A stretch of 64,000 nt of DNA from the IMG/VR virus record IMGVR_UViG_3300043754_000129, positions 192,001 through 256,000 of that record; one strand, written 5' to 3'. Numbering within the stretch: the first letter of the stretch is position 1; the number at the start of each line of letters is the position of its first letter. The notes under the pieces were generated by a model that saw only the letters and a program-made list of their open reading frames with translations, did not search any database and was not told the origin of the DNA. Below, in pieces: positions 19,180 to 26,995 of this stretch. Both the position numbers and the translations under genes were made by a program. Origin of the DNA: a virus (Duplodnaviria; Caudoviricetes).

Positions 19180-21423
19180 TTAGGAAGGGTACTGCGGCGT
19201 TGGTGCGGGACCTGCAACGCGCTCGATCAGAACTGTAATCGGCGTCATGATTGCACCAACAAAACCAGCCGGGTTACCTGCCAGACCACCTTCAGTCGGC
19301 TGCCAGCCAGCAACACCTGCAACCGTATCGTTGCCATAACTGGCCACGCTTGTCCAGCCAGAGCCAGAATACGTTTGCGTGGCCCACAGCGGCATCGGAA
19401 TCACCTGATTGGGGCCGCTATAGACCCCACAGGCGCTTGCGGCGCTCGTGCAGTTGCCCCACATAGCGTCTTCATTTGCAAAGGCGCCAGAGACCGTATT
19501 GATGAAGTCCGTCACACTAGCAAAGACCCCATCAACAGCCGCATGGGCGGTCACCGTGTTACCGATGCTGAAGCCCGTTGTCTCGGTGCCGCTGTAGTTC
19601 ACCAGTTGCGTGCCCACAGCCACAGGACCATTAGCACCAAAAGCATTCGTCCACAGCGAGTCGATGTCGCTGTCCGTGTTGATCGGCACGGCCGTCGGCA
19701 GCGAGGCCTTGAACGCCGGCAAGAAGTCCAGAGCCGGTGAGAGCGAACTGGAACCCACACCACCCGGGTAGTTGTAACCCGGTGCATTCTCATTGCCACC
19801 CGGGGTCGTGCCCGCAGGCATTTCCTGGTTAGCAATCGACATGAAGCCCGTCGCGTCGCTGTAGTTCGTGACGCCATTGATGCTCGTCGAGCTCGTGTAG
19901 TTCGGTTGTTCGAGGATGAAGTTCACCCCCAGCCAGCCAAACTCCGTCGCCTCGTTGAAGTTGTAGATCAGCGGCTGAACTTCCATCTCCAACGCTTGAC
20001 CCGCATGCGCGAACTGATACGTGTAGGTCGGCGCGTACGGCACGTAGTACAGATTGATCGACGCGGTGATCTGCGTGTTGTCTGCAAACACACCCTGCAC
20101 CGTCAACGTGAAGACCGTATCAGAGACATTGCCGCCATCGACGTGCAGCTGCCAAGCAGCGGCTGCGTACACCGATTGCCCGCTCAGGTTGTTCGGGCTC
20201 GTGAAGCTCGATCCACTCGGATCCACCACGGTGGCCGACATCACATTCCACTGGACTGGCTGGATGCTCTCCGGTTGATTGTTCGCCGGATTGATGAGCG
20301 TCAAGTCCAGATAGCAATCTGCGGTGCCGCCTGTGAAGGCCACCTTGGCGTTGTTCGCGGGCTGCCAGCCGGCTGTACCGTCGACGGTGTCGTACATCGT
20401 GCCGTTGAGTTGCAGCGGCAGCATCTCGGGACCACCTTCAGCCCAGTTCTGTTGCCAGCTGGGGCGCACACCTACGACACCCGGATTGCTGGTCGTCGGA
20501 TAGCTGAAGGCCGAAACCTTCGTCAGCGTCACCGTGCCCACAATCGTCGAGTTATCCCCGTACGTGCCGGTGAGGGTCAGGGTCGTGACTTCATCCATCA
20601 CGAGGTTATCGCCATCTTGCGGCAGATACGACAGATACCATTCGGCATCCGAATACACCGACGTGCCATTACCACCAGGTGCTGAGACAGACGAGTTGCC
20701 CATCGTGATGTTGCTGCTGACCGCCGTGATCGCCCACGACGTTGGCTGTTCCGTTTCCAGTTGCAGGGTGCTGGAGTTGATGACGGCGATTTCCAGATCC
20801 GCCTCACCCGAACCATTTTCCGCATACTGAATCGGATTGGTGGCCGCATTCGCCCAAGGCGCGGTGCCATCCACGTTGAAATACATCGTGGAGCCGATCT
20901 TGGTGACTTCCCCATACTGACTCGGCGAGCCCCAACCTTGGAACCAGGCAGGACGCACGCCCAGCACCGGCGTAGGCGGTGTGACGCCATCGGACGAGCC
21001 ACCATCACTCGACCCAGTGCCATCGCCACTCGTGCCGTCTGAGCCCGTCGGAATGATGTCGCCAATCGAAGAGCCCGTGACGTTGGTGATCACTGTCGCG
21101 GTACTCAGGTCCGCGTAGTAGCCACCATTGGTCGCACGCATCGGGAACTCAACAGCCGTCACCCAATGCGTCGTCACCGCCGCCGTGTTGTAACACACGC
21201 AGATTTGTCGCACCCAACCACTTTCATCATTGTTGGGGTCATCCGAGAACGTCACAAAGAACAGTGTCGCATTCGGATACTTCGCCTGCGCGATTGTGGT
21301 CGCCTGCTGAACCAGAGCATGCAGCGTGTTGTAGTCCGTCTGGTTCAGTGTGATCTGTTGGATCACGGCGTCCGCAAGTTGCGCCAGAGTCCGAAAACCC
21401 TGACGCCCGAAAATCAGAGACAT
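19180..21423 (-). CDS. T/S/G/N-rich beta-type protein with duplicated module; possible virion surface or adhesin protein
   Basis: 747 aa; two modules starting GVRP(A/S)W and containing TMYxxVDGTAxW and QPxxWxxxxxS; function inferred only. Confidence 0.55.
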   Translation of the reverse strand: MSLIFGRQGFRTLAQLADAVIQQITLNQTDYNTLHALVQQATTIAQAKYPNATLFFVTFSDDPNNDESGWVRQICVCYNTAAVTTHWVTAVEFPMRATNGGYYADLSTATVITNVTGSSIGDIIPTGSDGTSGDGTGSSDGGSSDGVTPPTPVLGVRPAWFQGWGSPSQYGEVTKIGSTMYFNVDGTAPWANAATNPIQYAENGSGEADLEIAVINSSTLQLETEQPTSWAITAVSSNITMGNSSVSAPGGNGTSVYSDAEWYLSYLPQDGDNLVMDEVTTLTLTGTYGDNSTIVGTVTLTKVSAFSYPTTSNPGVVGVRPSWQQNWAEGGPEMLPLQLNGTMYDTVDGTAGWQPANNAKVAFTGGTADCYLDLTLINPANNQPESIQPVQWNVMSATVVDPSGSSFTSPNNLSGQSVYAAAAWQLHVDGGNVSDTVFTLTVQGVFADNTQITASINLYYVPYAPTYTYQFAHAGQALEMEVQPLIYNFNEATEFGWLGVNFILEQPNYTSSTSINGVTNYSDATGFMSIANQEMPAGTTPGGNENAPGYNYPGGVGSSSLSPALDFLPAFKASLPTAVPINTDSDIDSLWTNAFGANGPVAVGTQLVNYSGTETTGFSIGNTVTAHAAVDGVFASVTDFINTVSGAFANEDAMWGNCTSAASACGVYSGPNQVIPMPLWATQTYSGSGWTSVASYGNDTVAGVAGWQPTEGGLAGNPAGFVGAIMTPITVLIERVAGPAPTPQYPS

Positions 21424-22088: not shown

Positions 22089-22547
22089 TTACAGTGCCTG
22101 GATCGCGCGGATGCGGATGGCGTTGAAGGGATCCGGCTTCGCTTCCATGCGCAGGATGGCACCTTCGGGGCGTTCCCAGGTGAAGGGCATCTCATCGCCT
22201 TCGCTGTTCAGCTGGCTCTTGTCATAGCGCACGAAGTCAGCCACGTAGTAGTGGTTATCCGTGCCGCGAAAGAGGTGCTCGCGTTTCTTGCCCATCGGAT
22301 GTTCGGCGGGTAGGTTCACTCCGAGCGGGCGGATGTTGGTAATCACCACCCCGACTTCTTCCAGGCTTTCCTTGGCGACCGTTTCTTCTGCCGTGTGGTT
22401 CTCTTCCACCCCGCCGCCGGGGAAGTTGTAGCAGACCGTCATACCGTTCACCCGCACCTGACCGAGCAGGATGCGACCTTCCTTCTTGATGATCACGCGC
22501 GCCACCATGCGCAGGGGAAGATGCGAACGATCGATGTTTTGTTCCAT
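22089..22547 (-). CDS. Nudix hydrolase
   Basis: Nudix box GGGVEENHTAEETVAKESLEEVG; start moved to MEQNID. Confidence 0.9.
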   Translation of the reverse strand: MEQNIDRSHLPLRMVARVIIKKEGRILLGQVRVNGMTVCYNFPGGGVEENHTAEETVAKESLEEVGVVITNIRPLGVNLPAEHPMGKKREHLFRGTDNHYYVADFVRYDKSQLNSEGDEMPFTWERPEGAILRMEAKPDPFNAIRIRAIQAL

Positions 22548-22661
22548 TGCTTTGCTCCGTTTGGTTTGTTGTTGTGACCTTGATTGGTAGGTCAGTGGCA
22601 TTATATCTGTCTGACTTTTCTTTCATTGCGGCATAAGGGGCGGGACTAGCCCGCCAGCCTT

Positions 22662-23159
22662 TTACCACATCAGGTAGTTGGGCGGTGTGTCACCCTTGCC
22701 CCCACCGAGGAGCGTGACTTGCTTATTCGCGAGCCACTTCACGAGATCGACCTTTTCCTTATTCAGGATGTTCTTGTCGATCGTAGCCTGAGTCTTCCAC
22801 TCAGTCTTGATCTGGTTGTGCTCGTTGGCGTTCTTCTGCCACCCGTCTTCTTCCGCCAAGCGGATCGTGTACAAGAAGAGTTCGAGTTGCTTGAGCTCGG
22901 CGAGCGTCGGCGCCACTTCCATCGGGAAGCGCACCCGGATATGGTTGCCCCGGCGCTCATACTCGGTCGACTGGAACTTCTTCTCGATCATCGAGGCGAA
23001 TGCCATTGCAATGGCTTCATCCCGACTGGAGGTCGTATAGAGCCACTCGTTCGATTCGGTCTCGTCCCATTTGACGATCTCACCGCTGCGCAGGTAACCC
23101 GGCATCAGTTCGTTCTGGTCGAACCCCGAGCCGTGATACAGCAATTTCTCAATAGCCAT
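22662..23159 (-). CDS. Putative ADP-ribosyltransferase-fold protein
   Basis: LLYHGS...LMPG...WLYTT...AIAMA resembles the H-Y motifs of Arr/PARP-like ARTs; ends PPNYLMW. Confidence 0.45.
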   Translation of the reverse strand: MAIEKLLYHGSGFDQNELMPGYLRSGEIVKWDETESNEWLYTTSSRDEAIAMAFASMIEKKFQSTEYERRGNHIRVRFPMEVAPTLAELKQLELFLYTIRLAEEDGWQKNANEHNQIKTEWKTQATIDKNILNKEKVDLVKWLANKQVTLLGGGKGDTPPNYLMW

Positions 23160-23203
23160 TATTAGTTCTCGGAATAAGAGGGGAGCCGAAGCTCCCCCGG
23201 CGT

Positions 23204-23758
23204 TTAACGCGTGATACCGTGCTTGTACATGAAGCGGCGCATGTCGTCCATGGCAGTCTTCGTCAGGAGCGTGTTGTACATCGAACGATCCCAGACCTTC
23301 GCTACCAACTCCGCACCCATGTCCTGCTCCATATGGTTCGCGACTTCGATAGCGATCAGCTCATGGATTTCCACATTGGTCACCATGTGGCTATGAAAGC
23401 CAAAGCGATTGTGGATGCTATTGTCTTCGAACGCATCGAAGAACGCCTTCGGACGCTTGGCCACGCAGAACAAATACGCAAGCCACTCCGCCTTCGTGCC
23501 AATCAGGGCCTGGAGCAGATCCCGATCGGTAAACGAGGCACTGGGCGTCGTGAAGATGTTCGTGCCATAGATCGAGTGGAACAACCCCGCGACCTGGACG
23601 TGCTCGGGCATCCCCCACTTCTTCAGGAGGTCTCGCGTACCCTTCAGGTGTTCGAAAAGAGTCCGGCCCGTATGACTGGTCGTGTCCGTATGGAACTGCT
23701 TGAGACAGTCCTCATACGGATCGTAGTCGTGCGCCACTACCGCGATGGGAAACCCCAT
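23204..23758 (-). CDS. HD-like metal-binding protein (DUF6817-like)
   Basis: SHTGRTLFEHLKGTRDLLKKWGMPEHVQVAGLFHSIYGT; start MGFPIA overlaps the upstream stop (TGATG). Confidence 0.7.
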   Translation of the reverse strand: MGFPIAVVAHDYDPYEDCLKQFHTDTTSHTGRTLFEHLKGTRDLLKKWGMPEHVQVAGLFHSIYGTNIFTTPSASFTDRDLLQALIGTKAEWLAYLFCVAKRPKAFFDAFEDNSIHNRFGFHSHMVTNVEIHELIAIEVANHMEQDMGAELVAKVWDRSMYNTLLTKTAMDDMRRFMYKHGITR

Positions 23759-24387
23759 CACGCAGCTTCCGTCGGCATGACGGGCTTGGCACCCACGTGC
23801 GACTTGAACACGAGTGCCGTACGCAGATGCGGACAGTCGCGCGCCGGCGCATTCGCCTTGTGCGGGATGTGGCCCGGGAACGTCACGATACGGAACGGCA
23901 CGGCCGCTGCGGCCTTGATGATGTCCTTCTCGTCGAGCGAGTAGAACAGCGTCTCGCCGCCCCAGGGTGCCTTCCAGTCCGGGTTCGTGTAGATGATCGT
24001 CGAGAAGTAGTTCTCGGTGTCGCGGTTGTCGACGTGGATGTAGCCTTCCGTGCCGAACGTGTGGGCGTTGCCATACGCGCGCAGCGGCTCGTGGCCTTGC
24101 AGGATCGTCTTGCTCAGCAGATCCCACACTTGATACACGGAGAAGTTCTCCGGCTTTTGGCGCAGCTGGTCCGCACAGTTCACGCGGCTATTGAGGTCGC
24201 CACCTGCGAAGTGCGTGTGCCAGAAGCTGTACTTGTCCTTCTCGGCGTTGCTCTTCCAGCCATAGGCCCAACGCGGCTGCTTCATGAGCGCGGCGATGGC
24301 GTTCTGGAGCTCAGCCGGGATCAGTCCGTCATGGATCTGAATGCGGGCGATGAGGTCAGCGTGCTTCGTTTGAATTGCTTGGTTCAT
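23758..24387 (-). CDS. 2OG-Fe(II) oxygenase, prolyl-4-hydroxylase-like (copy 3)
   Basis: GYIHVD (HxD), WKAPWGGE, distal His in GHIPHKA, R/K in LRTALVFK. Confidence 0.85.
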   Translation of the reverse strand: MNQAIQTKHADLIARIQIHDGLIPAELQNAIAALMKQPRWAYGWKSNAEKDKYSFWHTHFAGGDLNSRVNCADQLRQKPENFSVYQVWDLLSKTILQGHEPLRAYGNAHTFGTEGYIHVDNRDTENYFSTIIYTNPDWKAPWGGETLFYSLDEKDIIKAAAAVPFRIVTFPGHIPHKANAPARDCPHLRTALVFKSHVGAKPVMPTEAA

Positions 24388-24397
24388 GGTTCTCTTC

Positions 24398-25021
24398 TTA
24401 CATGCGGAGGATCTGCTTCGAGCGGAACGAGAGCAGCGGAAGGTATTGCGGAGCTTCACGGGTCGGCCCGTTCGGCTTGTGGGGCAACAGTCCCGGGAAC
24501 GTGATCACGCGGAACGGTTTCGGTTCCACCGCGCAGATGATGTCATTCATCTCACGATCGTAGAAGACCATCTCGCCACCCCAATGAGCTTGCCACTCAT
24601 CGAAGGCAAAGATAATCGTCGAACGATAGTTCGTCAGGTTCAGGCCATTGCCCATCTTACCCTGATCCTCAGGATCAGTGTTGTCACCGTGCGCATAGCC
24701 TTCGCAGCCGTGATGAAACCCAATCACGAAGGCGCGCATGAGACTGTGGCCTTTCAGGAAGGTACTCGTAAAGAGCTTCCAGATTTCAGCCGAGTCGATC
24801 TGGTGACCGTCACGCATGAGGTTCTCTTCTGCGTTTTGGTTGCCGCGCAACGGATTCGCCACGCTGCGGCCCCAGACGGGATACTCGTCCCAGGGCGCGG
24901 TCTGCCAGCTATAGGTCCAGAGTTCCTTCTTCACCGTAGCGGCGAGTCGGTCCTGAATGTCTTTCGGGATGATGTCGTCATAGACGTGCACCTCATCCAT
25001 CAAACTACCCATTGCTTTCAT
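24398..25021 (-). CDS. 2OG-Fe(II) oxygenase (copy 2)
   Basis: GYAHGD, WQAHWGGE, PGLLPHKP, SFR. Confidence 0.82.
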   Translation of the reverse strand: MKAMGSLMDEVHVYDDIIPKDIQDRLAATVKKELWTYSWQTAPWDEYPVWGRSVANPLRGNQNAEENLMRDGHQIDSAEIWKLFTSTFLKGHSLMRAFVIGFHHGCEGYAHGDNTDPEDQGKMGNGLNLTNYRSTIIFAFDEWQAHWGGEMVFYDREMNDIICAVEPKPFRVITFPGLLPHKPNGPTREAPQYLPLLSFRSKQILRM

Positions 25022-25602
25022 GTTTCTCTTCTTTTCCTCGAACGAAAACCGAGCACACCACGCATCTTGTCAGTCTCTCGTGTTGGGGGGCTGATGCGGT
25101 GAGGGATGTGGCCGGGCGAGATGATGACGCGAAGCGGCTTAGGCTCAATCACCTTGATGATATCCGACTCATCTTGCGTGAAGTACATGAGCTCCCCGCC
25201 CCAATGAGCTTGCCACTCACTGTGGATATAGAGAAGCGTCGTGTAGTAATCCTCTTCTTTGCCATCGATGTGGACGTGACCATCCATGCCTTGCGTGAAG
25301 CTCAGCGCCCAAAAGCGCAAGAGTTCATGCTCGGGCAAGTACTTCTGTTTGATGATCGCCCAGAACTTACCAAGGAGGTAGGTGCGCCGATCTGCGTAGA
25401 GTTCTGCTTCGCAGTTCCCCAAGTCAGTAGCGTCCGAGCCTCCCATAAACAACGCGCCCCAGTTCTTATACGCGTAGTTATTGGTGGTCCAGTTGTTAGC
25501 CCAAATGGGCTGTTGCGTCAGACGTTGCAACTCCCCGCGCAGCGCCTGAGGAATCGGTACATCGTCGTAGACTTGTACCAATGCTGCCAGGTCTTGTGTC
25601 AT
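25018..25602 (-). CDS. 2OG-Fe(II) oxygenase (copy 1)
   Basis: GHVHID, WQAHWGGE, PGHIPHRI, MRGVLGFR; ATGA overlap with the next gene. Confidence 0.85.
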   Translation of the reverse strand: MTQDLAALVQVYDDVPIPQALRGELQRLTQQPIWANNWTTNNYAYKNWGALFMGGSDATDLGNCEAELYADRRTYLLGKFWAIIKQKYLPEHELLRFWALSFTQGMDGHVHIDGKEEDYYTTLLYIHSEWQAHWGGELMYFTQDESDIIKVIEPKPLRVIISPGHIPHRISPPTRETDKMRGVLGFRSRKRRET

Positions 25603-25621
25603 TTGTTTAAGCTAGCAAAAT

Positions 25622-26205
25622 AAAAAAAGGGGTAATGCCACAGCCCACTGAGGACGGCCGTGGTACAGCGTTCATCTATCTCATCCGGGGAGACGACCGT
25701 TTCAATAGACTTCTACTGTACCCAAACGCACACTAGCGTTGACGCTCGCACCGATACACTGATGCGCCGAACGGATAATCCTCAGCAGGCTGCGTTCTAG
25801 GAGCAAAGCTCAACCAGAGTACAACTTCCCAGATCCACTGGGCGTACCGAATAGGCAGTCGGGCCAGCAAGAAACCCTTTGCGTGTGGGCAAACACACGT
25901 GGTCTTTTAATCGGTATCAGACCATAGACTGTGAGAACAGCTAAAGAGGAAGCAGTGTATCTGGTACCCCCACGGCACCCTGTGGGCTCTAGGCTGTCTC
26001 ACGACAGTCTGTTGTCAAGCCCATCACACCAACAACCACCACCGAGATAAGGATCTCGTGCCGCACTTTCGCAGGCGTTTCACCTGAGCGTTCCCCGACC
26101 GTGGTAAAGACCACAATCAGAGGCACTGGAGACTTGCACTCCTCTTCAGACAGTATCAACGGTACTACCAGGGATTTCTCCCCGCATAGAATAGCCGTCG
26201 TGCGG
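25622..26205 (-). ncRNA. Candidate large, highly structured non-coding RNA (~580 nt)
   Basis: No credible ORF; several 6-13 bp long-range helices, GNRA-capped hairpins and a possible pseudoknot found by hand; ends in a U7 tract; strand inferred from GNRA loops and flanking genes. Confidence 0.6.
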
Positions 26206-26208
26206 TTT

Positions 26209-26643
26209 TTACTTATCCATGGCCCCATTGACCGCGCCTTGCACCACGCGGCGCACCAGCGACTTGGGCTTGCGTGCACCGAGGTGCTGATGGTCGTCCG
26301 GGGTCATCGGGATTTCCGAGCTCTGCTTCAGACGCACACCACCGGCCGCTGCCACGAATTGGGCACCGAGCGACACCGCCCCAGCACTGAACGCCATGCT
26401 GTTAAACGAGTGATGCCAGATCGTGTCAAGGTAGGTGAACCACAGGAAGAACACGCCGAACAGTCCGCACAGCAGGTACGGGATCAGACGGGCCGGGTCG
26501 ACGTCACCGTTCCAGCTGGTGAACATGTCACCGCAGACTTTGGCGATGAACGCGAAGACCATCGAGAGTTCTTCCTGGATGAACTTCACCAGGACTTGCA
26601 GGGTCACATACGGGCCAATGCGGGCCCAGAGCTTTTGCCACAT
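26209..26643 (-). CDS. Multi-pass membrane protein, holin-like
   Basis: Start moved to MWQKLW; 2-3 hydrophobic segments and a basic C-terminal tail. Confidence 0.55.
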   Translation of the reverse strand: MWQKLWARIGPYVTLQVLVKFIQEELSMVFAFIAKVCGDMFTSWNGDVDPARLIPYLLCGLFGVFFLWFTYLDTIWHHSFNSMAFSAGAVSLGAQFVAAAGGVRLKQSSEIPMTPDDHQHLGARKPKSLVRRVVQGAVNGAMDK

Positions 26644-26767
26644 GTTGTTGGTTCTCCAAAAGGTTATACAACACACAATAGAAATCAACAAGAAAAAAAG
26701 ACAGCAAAAAAAGAGGGACCCGAAGGTCCCCCATAAAAGAGTGCGTTCGGCACTCGGAGCAATTCGT

Positions 26768-26995
26768 TCACATGTCCCAGTCCCAAGTCGGCCGAGCAGA
26801 CTGCTCAGCCGCATAGAGGTCCCGGGCACGCTGGGAGATCTGAACAATCGACGAAGGCACGACAGGCGTGGGGACCGGCGCAGCGTTAGGCTTGTAAGGC
26901 CTGCTCTGCCGCTCACGTCTGTCGCGTTCTTGGGCTTCTCGCATAAGCTCCGAGAAGGGTACGAATCCAGTAACTGCATTGACTGCGTCTACCAT
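26768..26995 (-). CDS. Hypothetical protein, 75 aa
   Basis: ORF track; GAGG RBS. Confidence 0.6.
   Translation of the reverse strand: MVDAVNAVTGFVPFSELMREAQERDRRERQSRPYKPNAAPVPTPVVPSSIVQISQRARDLYAAEQSARPTWDWDM

Follow-up and report, generated by a model that had tools for sequence, protein, structure and literature searches.

A phage operon of three Fe(II)/2-oxoglutarate oxygenases and a DUF6817 protein: a candidate SmaO/SmaX-like pathway acting on aspartate in virion proteins

The operon and its enzymes

The window analysed here is a stretch of 64,000 nucleotides, bases 192001-256000 of the 323,678-bp IMG/VR virus record IMGVR_UViG_3300043754_000129, whose helicase resembles most closely (43%) those of phiKZ-like jumbo phages, Burkholderia phage FLC9 among them. 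Its minus strand carries, at 23204-25602, a run of four translationally coupled genes encoding three paralogous Fe(II)/2-oxoglutarate (2OG) oxygenases, oxy1 to oxy3, followed by a protein of the DUF6817 family. The junctions are as a preliminary description, made from the sequence alone, had reported them: oxy1 and oxy2 share an ATGA overlap, a gap of 10 nt lies between oxy2 and oxy3, and oxy3 and the DUF6817 gene share a TGATG overlap. The terminator that the same description placed near 23180 fared less well, since a hairpin is present at 23198-23181 but its T-run is weak and the region holds 5 terminator-like sites against 4.7 in shuffled sequences; as a terminator the hairpin is only plausible. 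The features of the operon and the candidate substrate in the window are as follows.

25018..25602, minus strand: oxy1, 194 aa, Fe(II)/2OG oxygenase paralog, the fast-evolving copy; PF13640 and phrog_274
24398..25021, minus strand: oxy2, 207 aa, Fe(II)/2OG oxygenase paralog in which 12 residues are inserted after HxD; phrog_274
23758..24387, minus strand: oxy3, 209 aa from an internal ATG, Fe(II)/2OG oxygenase, the conserved and ancestral DUF6817 partner
23204..23758, minus strand: DUF6817 gene, 184 aa, predicted SmaX-type mono-iron HD-fold oxygenase; PF20680
23181..23198, minus strand: GC-rich hairpin with a TTCG loop and a weak T tail, 3' of the operon, from a consensus scan
19180..21423, minus strand: 747-aa orphan protein, candidate substrate, with an Asp-Gly linker at about 20968-21051

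The last gene of the operon, originally described as HD-like, scored 90.2 bits with DUF6817 (PF20680), for which the cut-off is 25.2. The same family contains SmaX (Kim et al., J Am Chem Soc 2025, PMC12186529), an HD_4-like protein and Fe(II)-dependent HD-fold oxygenase with a single iron that cleaves beta-hydroxy-Asp to aminomalonate. SmaX works only after the Fe/2OG enzyme SmaO has hydroxylated the Asp within a DGDG motif, and SmaO requires the Gly that follows the target Asp (PMC12186529). The Asp of the HD dyad is absent from SmaX, which holds its iron via His39, His63 and Asn143 and was shown by mutagenesis to need His31, Thr68, Arg104 and Gln147 as well (PMC12186529). All seven residues are present with identical spacing in the window protein, in which H29, H37, H61, T66, R102, N141 and Q145 correspond to SmaX H31, H39, H63, T68, R104, N143 and Q147. 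These positions are kept in 79-85 of 85 aligned DUF6817 homologues (84, 85 and 79 of 85 for the iron ligands H37, H61 and N141, respectively), and the HD dyad is replaced by HS in all 85. The AlphaFold2 (AF2) model of the protein, with a predicted local distance difference test score (pLDDT) of 95.8, has an HD fold. The HD part of the original description therefore stands, but the protein is not a generic HD protein; its residues identify it as a putative SmaX-family mono-iron oxygenase, a type whose step follows that of a 2OG hydroxylase (PMC12186529), and its predicted activity is on peptidyl beta-hydroxy-Asp.

The solved structures nearest to the DUF6817 model were the Rel, SpoT, Mesh1 and SAH hydrolase domains, with modest template modelling (TM) scores of 0.5-0.59; TmpB was also listed as a weak match. 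Together with a weak HD_4 match, one homologue named ppGpp synthase/HD hydrolase and a NUDIX gene close by, these matches could suggest an enzyme that breaks down (p)ppGpp or a similar nucleotide, either a small alarmone hydrolase or an HD phosphohydrolase like Mesh1. We regard this as the least probable of the explanations considered, since HD_4 scored only 14.6 bits against a cut-off of 27.2, the HD aspartate is an invariant Ser, the SmaX residue set is complete, and a hydrolase of nucleotides would have no use for the 2OG oxygenase to which the gene is coupled or fused. A RelA/SpoT-type HD hydrolase was rejected on the same HD_4 score and the HS dyad, the likeness being in fold alone.

The three oxygenases are 31-36% identical to one another and are the sole copies across the 323.7-kb genome. 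All of them fall in phrog_274 (oxy2 with E 1.7e-10), while the PF13640 cut-off of 27 bits is passed by oxy1 (31.9 bits) and not by oxy2 (21.5) or oxy3 (23.1). Alignment of the paralogs bore out the earlier observation that the HxD...H triad and the WxAxWGGE motif (WQAHWGGE in oxy1) are intact in each, and added a conserved Arg; H118, D120, H176 and R183 (oxy3 numbering) are invariant across the three. The AF2 model of oxy3 (pLDDT 85) was closest to PHD2/EGLN1 (E ~1e-9, TM ~0.64) and also near the Pseudomonas P4H/PPHD enzyme solved with EF-Tu (4iw3), and a profile search of PDB sequences agreed in giving PHD/P4H-type matches for the oxygenase. The listed Foldseek matches of oxy3 (ranks 1-49) were all PHD/P4H-type except PolD, with no AlkB, TET or JBP structure among them, and neither AlkB nor TET/JBP was among the PDB profile matches. 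Judged by its model, oxy3 appears to fold as a PHD-type protein hydroxylase, unlike AlkB or TET.

The preliminary description had left the substrate open between a DNA base, tRNA, a protein and a small molecule. Modification of DNA bases or tRNA by AlkB/TET/JBP-like oxygenases, possibly of a structured RNA encoded just upstream, would agree with the position of the operon directly behind a non-coding stretch of ~580-600 nt and with the PHROG and RefSeq label 'DNA endonuclease V', but it was rejected on fold, given the Foldseek result above, and we consider it very improbable. The DUF6817 partner family is a characterised peptide-modifying enzyme, and the label itself looks like an annotation error. 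It is the name given to phrog_274 in PHROGs and in many RefSeq cyanophage records (e.g. NC_031242.1 31598-32783), and it looks erroneous because the same records also call phrog_274 genes 2OG-Fe(II) oxygenase; the present assignment would correct this propagated label for the oxygenase family. Because of the PHD-like fold of oxy3, the DUF6817 fusions and the Asp-Gly-rich neighbours described below, the substrate class is narrowed to protein, and within protein to peptidyl Asp, while DNA bases and tRNA are disfavoured.

In a maximum-likelihood tree oxy1 and oxy2 were long-branched sisters, adjacent to a short-branched oxy3 clade that includes the single-copy gene of a 172-kb contig. This placement points to a jumbo-phage-specific triplication in which oxy3 is the conserved partner, and the triplication is apparently old and specific to the lineage of these jumbo phages. 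In a 285-kb relative, G001, the orthologues of oxy1 and oxy2 are 41% and 71% identical, respectively. Tandem oxygenase duplications arose independently in cyanophage-like contigs. The suggestion that the three enzymes carry out sequential tailoring steps is not favoured by the tree; parallel hydroxylases with different site preferences, feeding one downstream oxygenase, are likelier, and the three probably act in parallel on different sites and not in sequence.

Pairing of the two families in other genomes

Conservation of the gene linkage elsewhere had been named beforehand as a test of the operon, and the pair was found in other phages, in viral loci and in some bacterial loci. Relatives of DUF6817 were found in at least 215 viral contigs of IMG/VR. 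Where enough upstream sequence was available (74 viral loci), the oxygenase family adjoins DUF6817 in 66 (89%), with 63 oxygenases directly upstream, 2 directly downstream and 1 fused. The viral loci with a single-copy oxy3 homologue have it directly upstream of DUF6817. Among bacteria, sampled at one genome per species, only 12 of 77 DUF6817 loci were paired with the oxygenase, the remainder having diverse neighbours that include TauD and AMP-binding proteins. An exhaustive profile search yielded 2267 relatives of the oxygenase, and fusions of oxygenase and DUF6817, in either order, account for 41 of the best 149 family representatives (27%).

The order oxy1-oxy2-oxy3-DUF6817 is identical in G001. 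Within the isolated-phage collection DUF6817 was found in cyanomyoviruses only; in S-RIM50 and ACG-2014g it stands last in a series of overlapping genes, two phrog_274 oxygenases among them. This conserved linkage in other viral loci, in the cyanophages and in G001 upholds the view that the four genes form one pathway and are not redundant copies. The multi-copy 2OG-Fe(II) oxygenases of T4-like cyanomyoviruses (PMC3037559) thus resemble those of the window in belonging to phrog_274 and, in these two phages, in having tandem copies that end in DUF6817 through overlapping junctions, but differ in that S-RIM50 has no DG-repeat protein. They have been proposed to serve in DNA repair or in 2OG/nitrogen signalling (Sullivan et al. 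2010, PMC3037559).

Asp-Gly-rich candidate substrates and the proposed pathway

Because SmaO needs Asp-Gly (DG), 160 DUF6817 loci were surveyed for open reading frames (ORFs) dense in this dipeptide. DG-dense, low-complexity ORFs made up 10 of 152 directly upstream ORFs compared with 3 of 1494 others (Fisher p = 8e-9), and a DG-dense upstream ORF was found in 6 of 30 DUF6817 clusters in which the oxygenase family is present and in 0 of 36 in which it is absent. The repeat types vary by viral lineage (DGG, GDGDT, DGF, PPDGT and TPDGG runs), and the DG-rich carriers of different lineages show no detectable relatedness to one another. Many of the DG tails are without proline, and several candidate linkers are Pro-rich. 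No credible Pfam or PHROG match was obtained for the DG-rich proteins of ten viral loci, and they are called virion proteins because of their position in a structural module. A podovirus-like contig of ~41 kb, L030, encodes, in this order, major head protein, tail proteins, DG-rich protein, oxygenase, DUF6817, GNAT acetyltransferase, ejection-type virion proteins and tail fibre.

In the phage of the window, xDG(S/T/G/V) clusters were found in five ORFs. One is the 747-aa protein, on the same strand as the operon, which has SDGT, GDGT, SDGG and SDGV in a 20-residue Gly/Ser stretch with Pro-rich flanks, and which ties with one unannotated ORF for the top DG density in the 324-kb genome (four DG per 20 aa). 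It had no homologue in a set of 5.8 billion proteins and no Pfam or PHROG match, its Atlas model is poor, and at the G001 locus only its N-terminal domain has a homologue; that it is a substrate of the enzymes is an inference. Three of the five ORFs lie outside the window and match PHROG virion structural families (all from the L189/L208/L209 set):

G000:17821-18786: about 15 C-terminal (P)AADGT repeats; PHROG virion match weak (E 1.4e-4)
G000:157114-159213: xDG(S/T) interdomain linker; PHROG virion structural family match
G000:175782-176723: xDG(S/T) cluster, adjoining a tail-fibre-like gene; PHROG virion structural family match

The orthologues of these three proteins in G001, which bears the operon, keep DG-containing tails. 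By the same DG criterion no such ORF was found in FLC9, LucasX or RP12, related jumbo phages without the enzymes (GC content 53-56%), and the FLC9 homologues of the three proteins end without the tail.

We consider it likely that the operon is a phage version of the two-step SmaO/SmaX cascade, by which Asp residues in DG tails of the phage's own virion proteins are edited. At least one PHD-like Fe(II)/2OG hydroxylase of the three would beta-hydroxylate an Asp preceding Gly in disordered tails and linkers, rich in Gly, Ser, Thr and Pro, of phage proteins, and the DUF6817 protein would then turn the hydroxy-Asp into aminomalonate. The three hydroxylases would probably differ in site preference, and the likely targets would be structural proteins of the virion with xDG(S/T) repeats, namely the 747-aa protein of the window and the three virion proteins encoded elsewhere in the genome.

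Several points weigh against this proposal. For the phage enzymes the substrates, the product and the role (for example in metal binding or adsorption) are those we infer, and the oxygenases are likened to SmaO through their coupling and fusion to a SmaX-type protein. The window's own candidate substrate is an orphan that lies 1.8 kb downstream of the operon and is not adjacent to it, and the genome comparison of DG tails sets two genomes with the operon against three without. Twenty-four of the 30 oxygenase-bearing DUF6817 clusters are without a DG-dense upstream ORF, and a scan of cyanophage S-RIM50, in which the pair is present, revealed no DG-repeat protein, so that the DG-tail idea fails when extended to the cyanophages. 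Furthermore, a PHD-like fold, as modelled for oxy3, would by default suggest prolyl hydroxylation, and some of the linkers offer proline too.

Hydroxylases of prolyl (or other) residues that go no further than hydroxylation, like the viral P4H of PBCV-1 on Pro-rich repeats, with an unrelated job for DUF6817, would accord with PHD2/P4H as the closest fold, with the Pro-rich candidate linkers and with the database names 'proline hydroxylase' and 'SM-20-related' given to homologues. This explanation seems improbable to us, given the frequency of DUF6817 fusions among the representatives and of pairing among the viral loci, the absence of proline from many DG tails, and the SmaX chemistry, which needs a hydroxyl beside a carboxylate that hydroxyproline does not offer (PMC12186529). 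The PHD/EGLN enzymes, the bacterial PPHD and the PBCV-1 prolyl 4-hydroxylase do share with the oxygenases the closest fold, the HxD...H...R site and the use of protein substrates, but their identity is only ~15%, and the pairing with DUF6817 and the predicted modified residue, Asp and not Pro, set the phage enzymes apart.

It is also conceivable that the same hydroxylate-then-cleave cascade has another target, which may be a host protein, a secreted small peptide or an acidic small molecule, either free or bound to a carrier. The EF-Tu hydroxylase 4iw3 is among the nearest solved relatives (Pseudomonas PPHD hydroxylates EF-Tu), the bacterial contexts of DUF6817 are diverse, with the TauD and AMP-binding neighbours noted above, and DG-dense proteins are missing from most viral loci as well as from S-RIM50. 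We nevertheless think such a target rather unlikely, since the DG-dense ORFs are specifically enriched directly upstream of the pair on unrelated carriers, the pair lies within the structural module of the podovirus-like contig, and DG tails are found in the operon-bearing jumbo phages and are absent from the three relatives that do not have the operon.

Editing of virion-protein Asp, the reading preferred here, can be tentatively generalized. It is possible, though we hold this with less assurance than the case of the window itself, that phiKZ-like jumbo phages, podovirus-like phages of ~40 kb and possibly T4-like cyanophages turn Asp of virion DG tails into aminomalonate, a metal-chelating residue like gamma-carboxyglutamate (Gla), with a hydroxylase and a mono-iron HD oxygenase of their own.

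The closest known system is the SmaO/SmaX pair of a graspetide-type cluster for a ribosomally made peptide with post-translational modification (RiPP) (PMC12186529). The phage system shares with it the DUF6817/PF20680 enzyme with seven essential residues and HS for the HD dyad, the pairing or fusion of that enzyme with an Fe/2OG hydroxylase, and, in the candidate substrates, an Asp followed by Gly in Gly-rich sequence. It differs in that its genes are carried by phages (jumbo and podovirus-like phages and T4-like cyanophages), in having, in this phage, three hydroxylase paralogs per SmaX-type gene, and in its candidate substrates, which are large virion proteins whose tails are disordered, where the RiPP system has precursor peptides with a leader. 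Beside the pair, neither the window nor L030, the one viral locus annotated, showed a PCAT transporter, an ATP-grasp enzyme or other RiPP machinery.

PhnY/PhnZ and TmpA/TmpB each consist of an Fe/2OG hydroxylase and an HD-domain mixed-valent diiron oxygenase, and cleave C-P bonds. The logic is the same, in that a 2OG hydroxylase adds a hydroxyl beside an acid group and an HD-fold oxygenase cleaves the adjacent bond, but the phage hydroxylase is PHD-like and not TauD/PhyH-like, and C-C and not C-P cleavage is expected. A diiron HD oxygenase of the PhnZ/TmpB kind, with C-P cleavage of the PhnY/PhnZ type, was rejected for the DUF6817 protein, which has only a His/His/Asn site in place of the six His/Asp ligands (four His and two Asp) of the diiron site, and a Ser for the dyad Asp. 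SmaX is set apart from the diiron HD oxygenases by the same ligand difference (PMC12186529).

The words 'phage' and 'virus' are absent from the SmaO/SmaX paper (PMC12186529), a literature search on aminomalonate with bacteriophage found nothing relevant, and the mentions found of a hydroxylase-SmaX cascade concern bacterial RiPP or nonribosomal peptide synthetase (NRPS) clusters. Asp-to-aminomalonate chemistry has to date been described only in bacterial clusters for peptide natural products; the chemistry itself is known, and what is new is the phage setting, the expansion of the paralogs and the proposed virion-protein substrates. To our knowledge, the biosynthesis of the aminomalonate seen in proteins had gone unexplained for decades, and the first enzymatic route, to a bacterial peptide, dates from 2025. 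If the proposal is true, it would represent a previously unknown modification of capsid, tail or fibre with likely effects on metal binding, adsorption or stability, and would give a concrete function to the gene family of the IMG/VR contigs counted above. The same function would then extend to part of the 2OG oxygenase genes of cyanomyoviruses, which occur in up to five copies. The role of these cyanomyovirus genes has been guessed at, as DNA repair or 2OG signalling, since 2007-2010.

Neighbouring genes and other observations

A scan of the operon region found no sigma-70-like promoter, an Rfam search of 23000-26400 returned no family at E<0.1, and the operon DNA showed no similarity to isolated phages. 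The gene-free stretch of ~580-600 bases that precedes the operon occupies 25603-26208, and the spacer of another viral locus, L014, has two short matches only to it. Beyond this stretch, a small membrane protein is encoded at 26209-26979 (minus strand). A 49%-identical homologue is found at L014:5047-5487, in a 172-kb contig, and also in a Paraburkholderia assembly. The L014 homologue has a C-terminal, Pro-flanked GDGDGDGSDGDG tail and is followed by a single oxygenase-DUF6817 pair, while the membrane protein of the window has another tail, without DG.

Directly past the operon hairpin, at 22089-23159 on the minus strand, are two genes that encode a 165-aa protein and then a NUDIX hydrolase. 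The 165-aa protein belongs to phrog_13483 (function unknown), has an N-terminal HGS motif, and is found at the same position in G001 with 63% identity. Its language-model features are like those of rifampin ADP-ribosyltransferase (Arr) clusters (score 0.94), and the two proteins may be an ADP-ribosylation and clean-up pair.

An ORF of 115-155 aa, disordered and rich in Gly, Pro and Met, lies between the oxygenase and DUF6817 at L040:6524-6990 and also in L050, L051, L054 and L077-L079. It has a conserved N-terminal PYD..RDD motif and is a candidate for an embedded substrate of another type. In G001, an 837-aa open frame (G001:265162-267672, minus strand) immediately precedes the DG-linker protein of that phage; within the N-terminal two thirds of the frame are many repeats that end in NPH..T...(L/I)G, and the C-terminal part is like an autoproteolytic or Hint-like module. 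The GNAT acetyltransferase that follows DUF6817 in the podovirus-like structural module is located at L030:7647-8120, and one oxygenase-family representative (P0119) is an oxygenase-GNAT fusion; the same substrates may be tailored further through acetylation by GNAT.

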